DNA of 64,000 bases. Origin: an uncultured Nitrospiraceae bacterium. Its GTDB lineage: Bacteria > Nitrospirota > Thermodesulfovibrionia > Thermodesulfovibrionales > SM23-35. A program made the position numbers and the translations under genes. Below, piece by piece: positions 20,778-32,345 of the stretch. The stretch is from the NCBI GenBank assembly GCA_963727775.1, contig CAVSHB010000003.1:192001-256000 (forward strand), read 5' to 3'. Numbering within the stretch: the first letter of the stretch is position 1; each line of letters starts with the position of its first letter. The notes under the pieces are model-generated. The model was not told the DNA's origin and did no database searches. It saw nothing but the letters and a program-made list of their open reading frames with translations.

Positions 20778-21223
20778 TCCATCCTCCTTACAAATTCGGT
20801 CACTATTCCTATCGCTATCGTGATAATTATATCAAAAGAGGAAACGTAATATAGGATATATGTCTGCTTTCTTCAAAATTAGTCAATTGAACCTGGAATA
20901 ATGTCATCCTTATAGGGTGCGGGCAACGGGGTCTTTCTTCTTACGGTCAAAGCTGGAGGTTGAGTCTGCCATCACAACAGTTTCCGCTTGTACTCCAGAG
21001 ATTAGGCAGAATATTCAGAAGTCTCAGTTTCTATGCGTAGAACTAAACCGCTGCGCGGTGGTAACGAGGCGTCGATCTTTTCTGGATAAAGATAGACCTT
21101 TTTCTGAGTTGTAGAAGTTAGCCCGTTATCTCCCCCCTTGTTGAAGAGTCGAAGTCTTTTTACAATCTCCTTTGTTTCCCCGTCGGCCTTCGTCGGCGCA
21201 TATCGATTCAAAGGAGATGTAAT

Positions 21224-22066
21224 ATGAGCACGTGGAGAGAACAGATGTTGACAGACCTTTAGTTGAAAGGCATCACCCCCAGGACCCAGAATAAATATCT
21301 CAGAGAGGTTAACATGAAGGCGGATTATTTTGATAAACCGCTTGAGGAACTTAGGGAGAAAGAAGTAAAGGATTATCTGGTTCATATGCTGGATACCAGG
21401 AAGTTATCAAGAGGTACGTACAGAGGCTATGTGGCAGGAATCAAGTTTTTGTATAAGACAACCTTAAATCGTGAAGAGGTGGTAGAGAAGATCCAATATC
21501 CGAAGGCCAAAAAAACGCTGCCCGTAGTGCTGGATCTTGCTGAAATCAAGACTTTGCTTTCCGTCATGGAGAATCTTAAGCACAGGGCGCTGCTGACGAT
21601 TACCTATTCCGCAGGACTGAGAGTCAGCGAAGCAGCAAAGCTGAAGGTGACCGATATAGACAGCAAGCGGATGATGGTACGTGTGCAACAGGGCAAGGGT
21701 AGGAAGGACCGCTATAGCATCCTGTCGCAAACCGCCCTCGAGTTATTGAGGCAATACTGGCGGCAGTATCGTCCAAAGGAATGGTTATTCGAGGGACAGA
21801 AAGAAGGTACCCACATATGCTATACGGCGATACGGCAGATATTTGTTGAAGCCATGAAGAGGGCTGGCATTACAAAACCGGCGAGCCCTCATACCCTAAG
21901 GCACAGTTTTGCCACTCATCTGATAGAGGCGGGGACCAGCCTGCACCATGTCCAGTTGCTCCTGGGCCACAGGTCTCCCACAACCACAACCGTTTATCTT
22001 CATGTCAGCAAGATGAACCTCGCACAGGTCACCAGTCCCCTCGATAGTATACCCGAAGAGCTTTAA
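21224..22066 (+). pseudogene. Tyrosine recombinase (integron-integrase/XerD-like) with premature TAG at codon 13
   Basis: RBS AAGGAG, then MSTWREQMLTDL*LKG. Catalytic R (GLRVSE), K, HTLRH, LGH and Y are intact downstream. Confidence 0.8.
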
Positions 22067-23158
22067 AGCTTTTAACGGTATCATCGATGCGGACGTCTCA
22101 GGGCGTCGAGGTGGCCGATATCTTCCGTCAGTACGGTCAAGATCCCACCGGATGCCTATTAATCATCTGCGTGCTATGCACGCCATTGAGGTGTGCAGGA
22201 CTGCAATTCTTGGCGGACATAGGTATAAGTACACTTGCGGCCATGTAGACACATCTTACAACTCTTGCCGGAACAGGCACTGTCCCAAGTGTCAGACACT
22301 GCAGAAGGAAAAGTGGATAGAGGCCAGGTGTGAGAAGACCTATTGCCCATTCAATACTTCCAATGTGGGCTTCACCATACCATCAGAGTTAAATCCCCTG
22401 GTCATTATGAACCAGAGGGTCATGTACAACATATTATTCTGCTCGGTATCCGAGACACTTATGGAGCTCTCCAATAATCCGAAACACCTCGGCGCACATA
22501 CAGGCTTTATCGGCATCCTTCACACCTGGGGACAAAACCTTATGGATCATCCCCATATTCACTGTGTCGTACCCGGCGGCGGATTGTCACCTGATGGAAA
22601 ACATTGGGTATCGTGCAGGAAAGGTTTTTTCATGCCTGTAAGGGTTATGTCCTCATTGTTCAGGGGCAAGTTCCTGGACCATCTCAAAAACAGGTTTGAA
22701 TCAGGTGATCTTATCTTCCCTGGCGGTATCCGTCATCTTAAAGACCCCGGAACCTTTGAGGTGTTCAGAGGACAGTTCTACCATAAGAAGTGGGTTGTAT
22801 ATTGCAAGCCGCCTTTTGACGGCGCCGAGGGTGTCTTTAAGTATCTGGGCAGATATACCCACAGGATTGCTATCAGTAATAATCGTGTCCTAAACGTTGA
22901 AGACGGCAATGTTTCCTTCCGCTGGCGGGACTATGCCGATGGTGATAAACAAAAGATCATGACTCTTAAGGCCGATGAGTTCATAAGAAGGTTCCTTCTT
23001 CATGTGCTTCCGCATCGATTTGTGCGCATAAGATTATGTGTTTAAGCACATAACCTGATTTATGTTATATATTCACTTATGTTGCGTCGTTTGTGAAAGG
23101 CCTTGTTATTGCACAATGTCATCGTTAACGACACAACATAAGTAAATCCCTCTTCGGG

Positions 23159-24154
23159 TTAAAGTGCTTTTAAGAATGCCATCAACCCCGGCTGATCTTT
23201 CCACCGTCTTGATTGCTCTGAAGTAAATATCTCACAGTGGGCAAGTGCCTTTGCCTTCATTTCGAGATCGACCTCAGCATAGACATTTGTGGTATCTAGC
23301 GACACATGCCCCAGCCATGCACGGATTGTATTAATATCCACACCTGCGCGAAGAAGGTGAACTGCGCAGGTATGACGAATTATATGTGCACTGACTCTTT
23401 TCGTTCTCATTGAGGGGACTTTGTTGCTTGCTTTGATAACATAACGCCTAACGAGGGCATGAATGCCGAAGCGAGTGATTGTCTGCCCCCGACAGTTGAG
23501 GAAAACCTGTTCGCTATCCTGGCGATCGGCAATGAGAGTGCGTAAAGTATTGGCTGTTAAAGACCATAAAGGACAGATTCGTGTCTTGCCTCCCTTGCCT
23601 TTAATCTTGACTGAAAGCGAATAATCCAGGTCGAGATCGTCTACAGTCATATTCGCAGCTTCATGGGCGCGGGCGCCAGTATTGTAAAGAAAAAGAAGTA
23701 CGGCATAATCTCTAAAGCCTTGTTTGGTGGAAGTAACGGGAGCATTAAGCAGGGCATCCATTTCTTGTTTGTCGAGATAAGACATCGCAGCCTTTGCAGT
23801 TTTTTTGAAAGGGATAGCTCTGATCTGTCCACACCAGATGATGTGTTCCGGACATCGTTCGCCGATAAAACCGGCGAGGGCGTGAATTGCGGCAAGGCGC
23901 TGGTTGCGAGTGGCTATAGAACAGGATCGATGCTCCTCTATATAAAGCAGAAAAAGACGAATTACCTCAGGGGATATATGCTCTACAAGCAGCTTGTCTA
24001 TAGGTTTTCTGACCTTCTCAGCGATGAAAGGGAGCATCAAGGCCAGAGCATCGCGATAACTGGATTGTGTATTTAGCGACAGATTACGCTCTTCCACCAA
24101 GTATTCCATAAGGAAGCGTCGCACCCAATATCCGATAGAAGTTACGTTAGACAT
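23159..24154 (-). CDS. ritC: RIT tyrosine recombinase C
   Basis: SYRDAL, TRNQRLAAI, GAR, HIIRH and LGHVSLDTTNVY motifs. Confidence 0.9.
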   Translation of the reverse strand: MSNVTSIGYWVRRFLMEYLVEERNLSLNTQSSYRDALALMLPFIAEKVRKPIDKLLVEHISPEVIRLFLLYIEEHRSCSIATRNQRLAAIHALAGFIGERCPEHIIWCGQIRAIPFKKTAKAAMSYLDKQEMDALLNAPVTSTKQGFRDYAVLLFLYNTGARAHEAANMTVDDLDLDYSLSVKIKGKGGKTRICPLWSLTANTLRTLIADRQDSEQVFLNCRGQTITRFGIHALVRRYVIKASNKVPSMRTKRVSAHIIRHTCAVHLLRAGVDINTIRAWLGHVSLDTTNVYAEVDLEMKAKALAHCEIFTSEQSRRWKDQPGLMAFLKAL

Positions 24155-25091
24155 GATTCACGTCCGATAGAACATAATGTTCAAAACGCAAATTTGCTTC
24201 CCGCAAAAGATCAGGAGTCATGCTCAAATAGCATTGGGTCTCCGCCACATCAGTATGGCCCAAATAGGTTGATAATTGAGGCAGCAAGCGCTGGACATCA
24301 GCGCCTTCCCGGTACCAGGCTTCAAGACGGTGAACTGAAAAAGTGTGACGAAGGTCGTGAATCCTGGGATAGTATCGAGTGCCGTCCCGGCGAGGCATCC
24401 CGGATAGGTTTCGCAAACGACTGAAAGTTTTTTGCATGCGGCCATAGGATAAAGCGTGGCCAGTGCGTGTGGCAAAAAAGGCGGAATCTTCCTTAAGTCG
24501 GCAGGGCAACAGTCGCCTTTTTCCCAGATAGGAGTCAAGGTGGTCAGTTAACCGAGGGCCGATGGGTACGAGACGTGTCTTATAGAATTTGGTATTGCGC
24601 ACTGTGATAAGGCTATCCGAAACGTTAACATCAGCAATCGTTAGAGAAAGCGCTTCGCTGATACGAAGGCCTGTTCCATAAAGGGTAAGCAAAATGGTTC
24701 GGAAGGTGGTTGCCTGAAGAGGACTTATTGGGGATTTAAGCGAGTTGGTAGCGGAAAGGAGGCGGTGCAGTTCCTCGGTGGTGTAAATATATGGTTCCAG
24801 AGTCGCCGGACGTTTAGGTACCATCTTTGGAAGCGGAGACTTGTCGATATGACCATGGGTCAGAGCAAAGCGATAGAAACCACAGAGGACTTCATACTTC
24901 CGGTGCCAGAAGGTAGTGATCGGACCTTCACCTGCAAGGAATGCTGCTGCAGTATCGGGATTAACTTCTTCGATCTCTATATCGCCCATAGCTTTGCAAA
25001 AAGATCTGAGTACCACAGCATCAGACCGGTAACACATACCAATGGACTGTTTTAGCGACACATACTCGGTAACAAGTTCTGAGAGTTTCAT
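24147..25091 (-). CDS. ritB: RIT tyrosine recombinase B
   Basis: PYIYT, GLRISEAL, TKFYKTRLVP, HDLRHTF and LSTYLGH motifs. Confidence 0.9.
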   Translation of the reverse strand: MKLSELVTEYVSLKQSIGMCYRSDAVVLRSFCKAMGDIEIEEVNPDTAAAFLAGEGPITTFWHRKYEVLCGFYRFALTHGHIDKSPLPKMVPKRPATLEPYIYTTEELHRLLSATNSLKSPISPLQATTFRTILLTLYGTGLRISEALSLTIADVNVSDSLITVRNTKFYKTRLVPIGPRLTDHLDSYLGKRRLLPCRLKEDSAFFATRTGHALSYGRMQKTFSRLRNLSGMPRRDGTRYYPRIHDLRHTFSVHRLEAWYREGADVQRLLPQLSTYLGHTDVAETQCYLSMTPDLLREANLRFEHYVLSDVNHV

Positions 25092-26328
25092 TCCAGCCCT
25101 CCCATATCAAACTTAGCTACCTCGCGAAGACCTGACAGATTCACCTTGGCATAGATCCTCGTGGAGAGAGAACTTCGATGCCCTAGGTGATCGCCGACCT
25201 CCTTGAGGGAGAAGCCCTCGGCAACCAGGTGGGCGGCGCACGCATGCCGCAATGAGTGGGGCCCATGATGGTGAGTGCGTATCCCGAGCTTCACCATTCT
25301 GTTACTGACCACAGGATAAAGTGCTCCTAATGAAAAAGGACGATATGGGGGCAAGAGAGTGAGAAATATCTCTCGATATGAAGAGTGGGGACGCACTTCC
25401 TGTAAATAGCGGATTATCGCGTTGCCTACTATTGGGATCAATGGGTATGTTTGTCTTCCTCTCAGCTTAACTCGGGGTACCGACATAAGTCTCTGTTCCC
25501 AGTCGATATCGTCAAGCCTGAGAGTTGCTACCTCAGTTGATCTCAACCCATAGATCGCAAAAAGCATCACGATGGGTTTGTCTCGTATGTCACTGGCTTG
25601 ATCTGTCTCCATGCTCTCTATCAAGAGTCTCACGTTTCCCCAAGATGGTCCCGACGGCAATTGTTCTTGGGCAAAGATACGAGGGCCACGTATATCGGGG
25701 GCAATTGAAGACGAACACCACCCCCGTGAAGCCGCGTACTTGAAAAAGGCCTTCAGCGCGGTCGCCATGTGTTTAACCGATATGCGACAATTGCCCTTGT
25801 CACCGTAATGGGTAAGAAACGCGTCAATATCTTTGAGGCAAACGGCTGAGATATCACAACTCCGAGTGCCATACCAGCGTAGAAACCGTTCAACGTAAGA
25901 GCAGTTCCCTCGGATAGTCTGAGAAGTGAACCCTCGTTCGTTCTTCATCCATGTCCTGAAATCTTCAAGCAAATGACCAAACGGAATGGAAGTATCTTCT
26001 CTCCAACAGCCCAAAAAACGTAGCCACGATCTTGCTGCATTGACAAAGCGACTGCGAGTACAGTGCGGATTAAGCGCTTTTCCCCAATATCGTTCCCGTT
26101 CTGTCCATCCTCGGGCAACAGCTCGACCTGATTCAGGGTTACTCCGTTTTCAAAAGAAATACGTAGCTTCTTTGCGACCCATAAAAGTTCTCGCGCAATG
26201 TTCTGTAAAGTCGAGAGAGAATATCCTTCTTGCTCGCAGTGCTTAAGATAACGCTCCCTCTCCTCTTTGTACGGGGCCTTCTTGTGACGGGATAGAATTG
26301 AGAGTTTTGTGTAAAGCTTTTCAAACAT
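25088..26328 (-). pseudogene. ritA: RIT tyrosine recombinase A with a frameshift near 26122
   Basis: MFEKLY...ERERYLKH N-terminus in one frame; AVARGW...GLRSTE, HSLRH, LGH, TRIY in the next frame. Confidence 0.8.
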
Positions 26329-27106
26329 GACCGGACCTCCTCTAATAGAGACTTTCCAGCCATATAACGGCAATTACTTATGTGTTGTCAAATCAAAAAT
26401 AATCATTGCAAATTAAGAAAATTGACTGACTTCACAACATAAGTGAATACATAACATAAATCAGGCACTTCGGACTCCTCGCAAACAGAAAGCGTAAAGA
26501 CAACATCGCGCTATGCCGTAAGCTCATCGGCAGTTGTAAAACCGAAACAAAAGAAGAAGAAGAAGAAAAATCAGAGACCTGGCAGGATCAGTTGCTCAGA
26601 ATCTACGGTATCGATATCAATACCTGCCCGGTTTGCAAGAAGGGCACAATGGTCACGATTGAGTATTTGCTCCCTTCCAGGTGCAATAGCCCTCCGGATC
26701 GATACTGATGCACACCGGCGATAGCTCAAAAATCATAGCTCTATCAACCTGCGAAAACAGCATCCTGTTTCGCTATGCTCCCCTATTGTCTGAAATCAGA
26801 CCTTGGGATACTATCCAGCTGCAATGGTCGCAATCTCAGCCTCAATTTTCGTATCAGGATGATCTCATGCAGATCAAAATAAGACAGATGCTCCATAAAC
26901 CATATCCTCTTCGATAGAAAAAGTTCCGGGAGAATTAATCGAATCCCCATATCCGGCGCACCGGCTTAGTTATATATAGAAATGGCATAAGATCAAACTT
27001 CCCCATTCAATCATAAGGGAGACTAATTTTATAGCTATTAAAAAATAGAAACCTCCTGTAAGAATAAGTTTATGGAGAAACAAAATTCTTTTGACAGGAG
27101 GTTTCT

Positions 27107-28399
27107 ATGGAACAAGTAGATGGTATCAGACTTAGGGAGTTTCGACAAGTCAAGAAAGAGATACGTGGCTCCGATCAGTATTTGATCATCGGCATCGACG
27201 TGGCTAAAGAGAAGCACAATGCCTTTTTCGGCACGGCTAACGGCAAAACGCTGCACAAGGGAGTGATCTTTGACAACACGATTGAAGGATTCGAGAAACT
27301 GCTGACGCTGACAGAAGCGCTTAAGGTCCAGCATGACCTTACAAAGGTGGTCTTTGGTCTTGAGCCCACAGCCAATTACCATAAGCCTCTGGGAGAGCAT
27401 CTTATTAAGTGTGGGCATATGGTTGTTTTGGTAGCGGGGACGGCAGTAAAAAACAACCGCACGCTTCTGGATGGCAGATGGGATAAGCACGACACCAAGG
27501 ATTCCTCTAACGTAGCCGACCTCATTTCCCAAGGGAAATTCCTATTCTATGAATATCCGGATCCGAAGATGCGGGATCTGAGGAATCTCCTTTCCTTAAA
27601 GAGACGACTCAAGAAAGAGGAACATGGCCTCCGGGTTCGCATCCGCAATCAGCTTCTGGCCCAGTATTTCCCTGAAATGGACCGCCACTTCGGCCCAGCG
27701 GTGAGCATGGCTGTAGTCGGACGCTGTCTTAATCCCTCGGTGATCGCCGGGATGGAATTCGATGAATTCCGCAGGCACGTTGCCCTCAGCAGAATGAATA
27801 TTGCCCAACAAAAGCTGCTGCAGGCGATCTGGCAGATAGCCCCTGATTCCATTGGATGTTATGTAGGAGACGCAGTGCCGTTCGAGGCGAAGGTGATGGT
27901 ATCCATGCTTAATCAGGTGCGAGAGACGATCAAAGAGGTGGAAGATAAAATAGAGGATATGTGCCTACAGTTTCCGGAATACCCATGCCTTTTGAGTATC
28001 CCTGGCTTTGGGCCGGATGTCTCATCAAAGGTTCTCGGGGCGATAGGTAATCCCTTTCGCTTTACGAGCGACAAGCAGGTCCTGAAGATGGCTGGTTTCG
28101 ACCTTTGCGCGGAGCGAAGCGGAAAGACTTCAAACAGCGTAACGCCGGTAATCTCCAAACAAGGGAAAGCCGATCTTCGCTACGCCTTATATCAGGCTGC
28201 TCTAATCGCTTCCTTTCATAACAAAGATTTTACGATTTATTACACCAATAAGCTCAGAGGTCGGCAGAGGGAAAAGGGAATTAGTACGAAGATGCGTGTA
28301 AAGATAGCCGCAAAGCTTTTGGTTATCGCATGGACCTTGATGAAAAAGAAGGAGCTATTCGATCCAAAATATCTCAATAAGGGGGATATCCAAATATAG
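27107..28399 (+). CDS. IS110-family DEDD recombinase/transposase
   Basis: IGIDVAK, GLEPTANY, KHDTKDS, SIPGFG and ERSGK motifs. Confidence 0.95.
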   Translation: MEQVDGIRLREFRQVKKEIRGSDQYLIIGIDVAKEKHNAFFGTANGKTLHKGVIFDNTIEGFEKLLTLTEALKVQHDLTKVVFGLEPTANYHKPLGEHLIKCGHMVVLVAGTAVKNNRTLLDGRWDKHDTKDSSNVADLISQGKFLFYEYPDPKMRDLRNLLSLKRRLKKEEHGLRVRIRNQLLAQYFPEMDRHFGPAVSMAVVGRCLNPSVIAGMEFDEFRRHVALSRMNIAQQKLLQAIWQIAPDSIGCYVGDAVPFEAKVMVSMLNQVRETIKEVEDKIEDMCLQFPEYPCLLSIPGFGPDVSSKVLGAIGNPFRFTSDKQVLKMAGFDLCAERSGKTSNSVTPVISKQGKADLRYALYQAALIASFHNKDFTIYYTNKLRGRQREKGISTKMRVKIAAKLLVIAWTLMKKKELFDPKYLNKGDIQI

Positions 28400-28468
28400 G
28401 CCACATCAAAAGAACTTAACTGAGGGCTTCCTGTGAAGCCGTTTCTGTTCTGGAGGCCCCAAAAACAA

Positions 28469-28647
28469 GACGCAGAGAGCCCGAGCTTGGCTTAGTTGAG
28501 GCGAAAGACCTCGTGGAGAACAATATAGGGCCTATCACTGAACTTGAGAGTCTGGATAAGGGATGATGGGCGGTACGCTCAATGCGGAACACGTCGGATA
28601 AACGTAACTATCAGAGATCAAGTTCGATTGTAGTGAGAGAGTGCGTC
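28469..28647 (+). ncRNA. Bridge RNA of IS110 #2
   Basis: Outer stem GACGCA/TGCGTC. Target loop GGCTTAGTT-hairpin-GTGGAGAAC matches the insertion site. Second arm closed by GAACTTGA/TCAAGTTC. Confidence 0.8.
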
Positions 28648-28776
28648 GAGAAAAAATACTATCGTCCAGATGGACGTACGGCAGACTATTGTTCTTGCAA
28701 GATCTCGGATAACGATCATTGATATTTAAGTAAATTTCCCAGATGTTTTTTGTCTTGACAGGAGGCACTATAGGAT

Positions 28777-28825
28777 GTTCTCCACACGTTATTCCGCAAC
28801 TTCGCAGCGGAATAACGCTTATTCG
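28777..28825 (+). repeat. 49-bp hairpin-containing repeat, copy 1
   Basis: GTTCTCCACACGTTATTCCGCAACTTCGCAGCGGAATAACGCTTATTCG; exact inverted copy at 32026-32074. Confidence 0.9.
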
Positions 28826-32025: not shown

Positions 32026-32083
32026 CGAATAAGCGTTATTCCGCTGCGAAGTTGCGGAATAACGTGTGGAGAACGCTTATTCG
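32026..32083 (-). repeat. 49-bp repeat, copy 2 (inverted), extended into a 58-bp imperfect palindrome
   Basis: Reverse complement of 28777-28825; CGAATAAGCGTT...AACGCTTATTCG arms. Confidence 0.9.
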
Positions 32084-32345
32084 CACTCTTGAGTCGGTTC
32101 TTCTATTATGAGTGAGACATTGAAGCCCTGGTTAAAACGGCTCTAAATCATTGGTATCATTAGCGCCGAGGGCAACATCACCTGCCGCGGCCTCATCTCC
32201 TTCTCCCCGGCGCGACGACAGGAACCTGACGGATTGCTCAACTACCTCGAACTTGCTCCTCCGCTGACCGTCTTTCTACTACCTTCTTTCCTGGAGACGT
32301 CCCGTATGGTCGGAGGCATAGCTGGCAGTATCTTTAGACTTCCAT

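Follow-up and report, generated by a model that had tools for sequence, protein, structure and literature searches.

The mechanism by which insertion sequences of the IS110 family use bridge RNAs has already been published, and the element described here leaves the understanding of how bridge RNAs work unchanged. In IS621, according to the account of guide register in PMC11208158, a 9-nt left guide and a 7-nt right guide read a 14-bp site. Elements may leave their site by being cut out, as described in part of PMC13626964, or by being copied out, as described in part of 10.1101/2025.10.25.684509. IS110-type elements whose non-coding region is 3' are already on record in section 6 of PMC11187229, together with a subgroup whose proteins are 395-455 aa long; one row of the tree table in PMC11208160 is a close relative that has no ISfinder name; and the modelling section of a 2026 preprint (10.64898/2026.10.21.760802) covers 32,190 bridge RNAs with 86 covariance models. 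A literature search, conducted largely outside the subscription journals, returned no paper on this clade or on IS110 elements that target IS91 ends. Long elements of the IS110 group that carry an IS621-type bridge RNA at the right end are a known exception.

The element considered here lies in a 64,000-nt stretch of DNA (the window; the parts of the element and of its host described below are on the + strand). It is an IS110-group insertion sequence of 1,808 bp, and its 430-aa DEDD/serine recombinase very probably uses a two-loop bridge RNA, predicted in the right end, for recombination between the joined ends and a 14-bp target with a GT core, located inside the terminal motif of integrase+IS91-type elements. 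Five relatives carry uninterrupted alleles, and the rejoined flanks agree with these at 69-80 of 90-91 columns, the hairpin among them, so the boundaries are right. The insertion is scarless, since the rejoined flanks equal the empty alleles, and surrounds a short shared GT core without target duplication. A contig in sequencing run X3 has the left target joined directly to position 28777; a search of the element's own genome for the exact empty 15-mer found none.

At the left junction, target positions 1-7 (CGGCTTA, 26962-26968), which belong to the terminal motif of the IS91-like host element, are followed by the left GT core (26969-26970) and a short left end of 136 nt (26971-27106). This end contains the right donor TATAT, the subterminal repeat arm TATAG (5 bp) and the predicted -10 box of a circle-junction promoter. 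At the right junction are the predicted -35 box of that promoter (TTGACA, 28755-28760), left donor positions 1-7 (ATAGGAT, 28770-28776), the right GT core (28777-28778) and right target positions 10-14 (TCTCC, 28779-28783). Joining the ends would give TTGACA, 18 nt and TATATA; the spacing is 17-18 nt in 46 of 48 elements, a sequence match found by a parser that is anchored on the boxes. The joined form was read by eye, and a promoter scan of the linear element gave 0 sites, as expected if the promoter arises only at the circle junction. No circle joint was found among the contigs of 8 sequencing runs (20 listed), assembled contigs being a form of data that drops rare forms; the two RNA runs among those examined contain relatives only. 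Within the left end, an inverted repeat (27048-27105; arms 27048-27059 and 27094-27105) is predicted to mask the recombinase gene's ribosome-binding site, and the pattern recurs in 69 of 77 loci. This repeat is 12 bp long, and in several homologues a TG-n-TAAGAT-like box is seen by eye at its 5' arm; from this box a transcript could start inside the loop and leave the ribosome-binding site free.

The homologue set consists of the best 80 of 196 related loci plus six copies from the element's own genome, 86 elements in all; the record titles of the related loci that were fetched are mostly Nitrospirota and Desulfobacterota. The RNA was parsed in 67 of the 86. Seventeen elements were left out as having no RNA found downstream, several of them being truncated or adjoining other DNA; L015 and L029 failed the parser, and L068, whose left guide was misparsed, was omitted. 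About six donor loops were misparsed in the first parse, and the handshake count given below was therefore redone. The junction parser is anchored on GT, TATAT and TTGAC, so that conservation of those motifs is not independent evidence and only the free positions count. One locus, L118, fits the junction pattern but contains no IS110. Some layouts depart from the common one. In L040-L043, L046 and L048, similar coding-like sequence follows the recombinase gene in place of the RNA, which suggests either a shared disruption or another layout. The left target guides of L015, L029 and L068 carry GA instead of GT at the core positions, as in the left donor guide; their left junctions were not recovered. 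L032 has an additional stand-alone arm resembling a target loop, with different guides, directly behind the stop codon and ahead of the main bridge RNA.

The initial annotation had proposed a bridge system in which the core is 3 nt long (GTT), two 9-nt guides together read 15 bp of target, and the match between donor loop and element ends is only partial. Its motifs are present at the positions it gave: GGCTTAGTT at 26963 and 28489, GTGGAGAAC at 28513, AGGGATGAT at 28559, AATGCGGAAC at 28581, and the second-arm stem GAACTTGA/TCAAGTTC at 28540/28618. In the window copy both junctions do read GTT and both 9-mers match perfectly. Across the homologues, however, this geometry is almost certainly wrong. 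At the right junction GT is followed by C in 44, A in 8, T in 7 and G in 1 (n=60, among the best 80 of 196 relatives plus the own copies), and at the left junction it is preceded by C in 40, A in 8 and T in 5 (n=53); in the donor, both neighbours of GT are T. The third base is consequently unequal between the two junctions in 53 of 60 elements, including a paralogue in the same genome that reads GT-T on the left and GT-C on the right. Because the bases flanking GT differ between target and donor across homologues, the shared core is two bases, GT. The extra matching bases of the 9-mers behave as scaffold: U28497, the last base of the left 9-mer, is T in 44 of 53 unique pairs, and target position 10 is T in just 5 of those 44, while the right 9-mer opens with G28513-U28514, and these agree with target positions 15-16 in only 4 of 53 pairs. 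Furthermore, a copy with the same guide occupies a site ending TCTCT, and the donor loop fits the IS621 layout. At the level of sequence, then, the homologues refute the GTT core and the 15-bp target for the family; the site has the 14 bp (7+2+5) of IS621.

In the IS621 register, the left target guide is 9 nt (28488-28496; seven positions plus the core, with a G-U wobble at position 1). The right target guide is 7 nt (28515-28521), is complementary to target positions 8-14, and is preceded by scaffold GU (28513-28514). The two bases that follow it (AA, 28522-28523) form the target-loop handshake guide, the first A of which would pair with donor position 7 (T) if the register given in the guide description of PMC11208158 applies. 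Two given 9-mers would be found within a 380-nt stretch by chance with a probability of ~2e-6. Among the best 80 of 196 relatives plus the own copies, left guides and target positions 1-7 have an identity of 0.78, compared with 0.44 when shuffled (46 unique guide/site pairs), and right guides and target positions 10-14 an identity of 0.79, compared with 0.50 (35 unique pairs). No shuffle in 10,000 reached the observed identity, also when one site per distinct guide was kept (32 left and 17 right guides), although this test overstates significance, as the elements are related and most relatives have a similar CAAC-GT-CCC site. By position, the right target matches at 1.00, 1.00 and 0.94 for positions 10-12 and at 0.57 and 0.46 for positions 13-14. 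The CAAC-GT-CCC(C) site is aimed at by L003-L005, L008-L014, L017-L026 and many others. Separate switches of guide and site are seen in the paralogue, L006, L056, L072-L073 and L074-L079. The paralogue, which is 89% identical and lies in the same genome, has both target guides altered in step with its site, and L074-L079 are six copies in one genome with a single common guide and six matching sites. The proposal of the initial annotation that the target guides spell the element's own insertion site is supported, and guides and sites covary across the 67 parsed elements. The annotation had named retention of the 9-mers by homologues at different targets as a refutation; on examination their guides change with the site.

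The donor loop can be read in the same way. The left donor guide is 8 nt (28558-28565). It varies together with the donor end, guide and end both reading GTAT in 15 loci and GAAT in 2, a covariation that rests on two lineage changes; in the window copy, position 2 of this guide is mismatched and position 3 pairs as a wobble. Between the two donor guides is an inner hairpin (28569-28595) of variable length, whose outer pairs covary. It contains AATGCGGAAC, which had been taken for the right donor guide; the columns of that motif are 15-73% conserved with up to 65% gaps, and it sits inside the covarying hairpin, which contains no guide. The right donor guide has the layout of the IS621 guide (28598-28608): AU (28598-99), a 4-nt bulge, and GUAAC (28604-08). 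It is 98-100% conserved in 48 sequences, and the first base of GUAAC, opposite donor T12, is G or A. Read in the IS621 register, the donor loop is a good match to the donor junction rather than the partial one originally described. The right donor guide is followed by the donor-loop handshake guide (UA, 28609-28610), complementary to target positions 7 and 6. The first of these two bases and target position 7 are complementary in 43 of 49 unique guide/site pairs (38 as G with C, 5 as U with A), which is the handshake signal known from IS621; five of the exceptions belong to one lineage.

Both loops are part of a predicted bridge RNA of ~180 nt (28468-28648), closed by a basal stem that is possible in 48 of 48 sequences; its ends are placed from the structure. 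A two-loop, bridge-type RNA of this length 3' of the recombinase gene, as first proposed, is predicted from the stems and covariation. In a five-helix structure, 93% of cells are paired and two-sided changes are present in 20 of 35 pairs, compared with 30-52% paired in slid controls, the structure having been read partly from the same alignment in which it was tested. RNAalifold alone missed the outer donor stem, and the named structure was counted afterwards. Relative to shuffled sequences, a 361-nt stretch folds no better (z -0.63) and a 186-nt stretch has a z of -2.2. A search of Rfam gave no match to the RNA region at E up to 1.

The recombinase gene (27107-28399) encodes a 430-aa protein with a RuvC DEDD domain (PF01548; D31, E86, D129 and D132), a coiled coil with a long helical variable region, and a Tnp domain (PF02371) with the catalytic S338-G339. 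It scores above the cut-off of NF033542 (NCBIfam, IS110 RNA-guided transposases). Among 47 sequences, the four DEDD residues are invariant and S338 is at least 90% conserved. The AlphaFold model (pLDDT 87.9) has extra helices between the coiled-coil arms, and IS621 and ISCro4 are the best matches by both sequence and fold. The domains, the DEDD residues, S338 and these matches uphold the original assignment to the IS110 family.

The position of the RNA raises the question of which group within the family is involved. The long non-coding region is downstream (379 nt on the right vs 136 nt on the left), as it is in the IS1111 group in the descriptions of PMC11208160 section 12 and PMC11187229 section 6, and a long upstream non-coding region, a typical but non-defining trait of the IS110 group, is absent. 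The element might on this basis be of IS1111 type, with a single-loop seekRNA and with ends recognized mainly by protein at subterminal repeats; the results part of 10.1101/2025.10.25.684509 reports that for CazIS110-1 an RNA with the target loop only makes up 90% of the bound RNA. Several observations make such an assignment very unlikely. In 44 of 48 elements the perfect subterminal repeat spans 4-6 bp (5 bp in the window element), short of the 7-17 bp of IS1111. The guide order, with the bottom-strand guide before the top-strand guide, is IS110-type by the criterion given in PMC11187229. An IS1111-group transposase is 330-350 aa and falls within the IS1111 clade, whereas in a 17-row tree the present clade is separate from that of IS4321, IS5708 and ISShdy1 (100/100; deeper nodes are open) and pairwise scores reach 108-125 bits against long IS110s but no more than 28 bits against IS1111-type proteins. 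Finally, the donor guide covaries with the donor. An IS110-type element with two loops remains the preferred reading.

The DNA that this element interrupts is itself mobile. The host element (21041-26708) has an inverted upstream end motif (21041-21055), a tyrosine recombinase (21263-22066) and an IS91-type Y2 transposase (22152 to 26708) that is split by a three-integrase block (23054-26465), which we take to be RIT-like. A near-identical three-integrase block is present at C1:340431-343843. The Y2 transposase has a zinc domain and adjoins an integron-like recombinase; such pairs are noted in the passage of 10.1101/542381 that also names RIT. On the far side of the IS110, the terminal hairpin and tip of the host element lie at 28788-28825. 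This right-flank hairpin had been considered as a REP-like host repeat, a reading abandoned once comparison with relatives identified it as the tip of the IS91-like element.

A scan of metagenomes by guide alone gave 4 hits, and all 4, as well as L001, are inserted in a CGGYTTA-GT motif (with one mismatch in L083). In four of these five, integrase or Y2 homology lies alongside, and either end of such an element may be occupied. The motif is present in 26 of 301 genomes of the class. Among 29 outside loci with the motif that were fetched, 27 are uninterrupted and one has a truncated left end of the IS110. The 27 continue as TCTTC (10), CCTTC (7), TCTCC (3), TCTAC (3), CCTAC (2) or otherwise (2), and variants of the right guide read TCTCC, TCTTC and CCTTC, mirroring these YCTWC-like continuations. 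Since five uninterrupted downstream ends match the rejoined flanks, the target lies inside the host element, ~47 nt from its tip; the contig from run X3 is concordant. Its hairpin and its location beyond the 3' end of the Y2 gene make the interrupted end a putative oriIS. Insertion of the IS110 has split a GTTC, which the relevant part of PMC13181058 gives as a known IS91-family tetranucleotide. In a second integrase+Y2 family (G000 C1:23494, C2:573843, C3:339471), the ends match the left guide but continue TCAAT, and 0 of 3 carry the IS110.

The genome holds four copies of the element with at least 99.8% identity, the 89% paralogue, whose gene is frameshifted, and one truncated copy. Three of the four near-identical copies have the same flanks on both sides, a pattern that would arise if the window copy had inserted once, been copied along with the IS91-like element, and since become weak or dead. 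The frameshift in the paralogue and the truncation of another copy fit such a history, as does A28534 in the window copy, which breaks one stem pair and is C in the other three near-identical copies. Passive copying of this kind is nevertheless unlikely. The frame and catalytic residues are whole; relatives have inserted separately at both ends of such elements; and the fourth copy, 99.8% identical, occupies an unrelated site, which requires recent movement by the IS110 itself. This copy, at C3:109146, occupies a matching 13-mer with no IS91-like end around it, so targeting follows the sequence and not the element. The initial annotation's description of the element as intact is likely right, given its open frame, DEDD residues, S338 and four near-identical copies, with the stem-breaking A28534 as a point against it. 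The site of the paralogue is the reverse complement of the IS91-like tip, and at its locus the hairpin is present alone. Two hybrid empty sites (window 32027-32085 on the - strand and G000 C2:573948) join the paralogue's left target through GT to a right target of the window type. Such sites may have arisen when IS110 copies recombined and were then excised precisely, or they may be solo IS91-like ends. A distant IS110 family (27% identity) is also present in several copies in the genome, one of them running from 11334 to ~10105 of the window (G000 C3:203334-202105).

The boundaries, the core, the covariation of guides with target and donor and of the handshake, the RNA stems, the catalytic residues and the identity of the target are all established from sequence; the steps of movement can be modelled on IS621. 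By homology, the element would form a circle whose joined ends create the TTGACA-18-TATATA promoter. The bridge RNA would be cut out of a transcript running through the gene, from its 3' part. A recombinase tetramer would then pair the two loops with their DNA partners (target loop with target, donor loop with junction), after which S338 would cut and the strands would be exchanged, with the handshake pairs assisting. The element is a real and likely functional bridge-RNA system with the corrected geometry and a specialized target. A conserved non-coding end of a multi-copy element would presumably provide repeated landing sites, and targeting such ends may give the IS110 a ride or may disable the host element.

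A broader reading, which we favour with moderate confidence, is that a long IS110 lineage has been naturally reprogrammed to track integrase+IS91-type termini, as an RNA-guided hyperparasite that rides or disables a rolling-circle element, and that it represents a deep-branching GT-core system that has kept the full IS621 pairing logic, handshake included, after its RNA moved to the right end. The tracking is based on guide variants that mirror variants of both host ends and on a second guide set, in the same genome, that hits the tip of the end interrupted here, on the opposite strand. With dozens of guide variants of known site, a native GT core and ~21% identity to IS621, the family is a natural test set and, for these same reasons, a candidate orthogonal bridge system. 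It allows the IS621 rules to be tested in long IS110 recombinases with a 3' RNA, along with the role of the long variable region. As an interaction between mobile elements, be it conflict or partnership, the targeting of IS91-like ends is unstudied.

Compared with IS621 and ISCro4 (IS622), as these are presented in the relevant parts of PMC11208160, PMC11208158 and 10.1101/2025.05.14.653916, the element shares the DEDD plus serine active site and the order of target loop, then donor loop. It also shares the 9-nt left target guide, the U linker, the GU linker and the 7-nt right guide; the 8-nt left donor guide, the AU linker, the bulged right donor guide and the handshake at position 7; and the 14-bp sites, the 2-nt core, the short ATA/TAT repeat and the junction promoter (predicted here). 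In contrast to both, its RNA is in the right end instead of the left and its basal stem encloses both loops; its protein is 430 aa instead of ~326 aa, with a long helical variable region and 21% identity; and its target is an IS91-like end instead of a REP. The natural core is GT here and CT in IS621, which tolerates GT according to the core-substitution results of PMC11208158. With the long IS110 subgroup (395-455 aa) of PMC11187229 section 6, the element has in common its length, the long variable region and a short imperfect terminal repeat, and with the IS110-type exceptions listed there it shares the downstream non-coding region. The named long IS110s ISBth13, ISRel25 and ISBma3 are 20-28% identical to it, and their branching order with the clade is open. 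From the available descriptions, IS4321/IS5075, which target Tn21 ends, and the IS1111-attC elements are likewise members of the IS110 family that aim at a conserved end or site belonging to a different mobile element. Those elements differ in belonging to the IS1111 group, with long subterminal repeats and a reversed guide order, whereas the element described here is an IS110-type system whose host is an integrase+Y2 IS91-like element.
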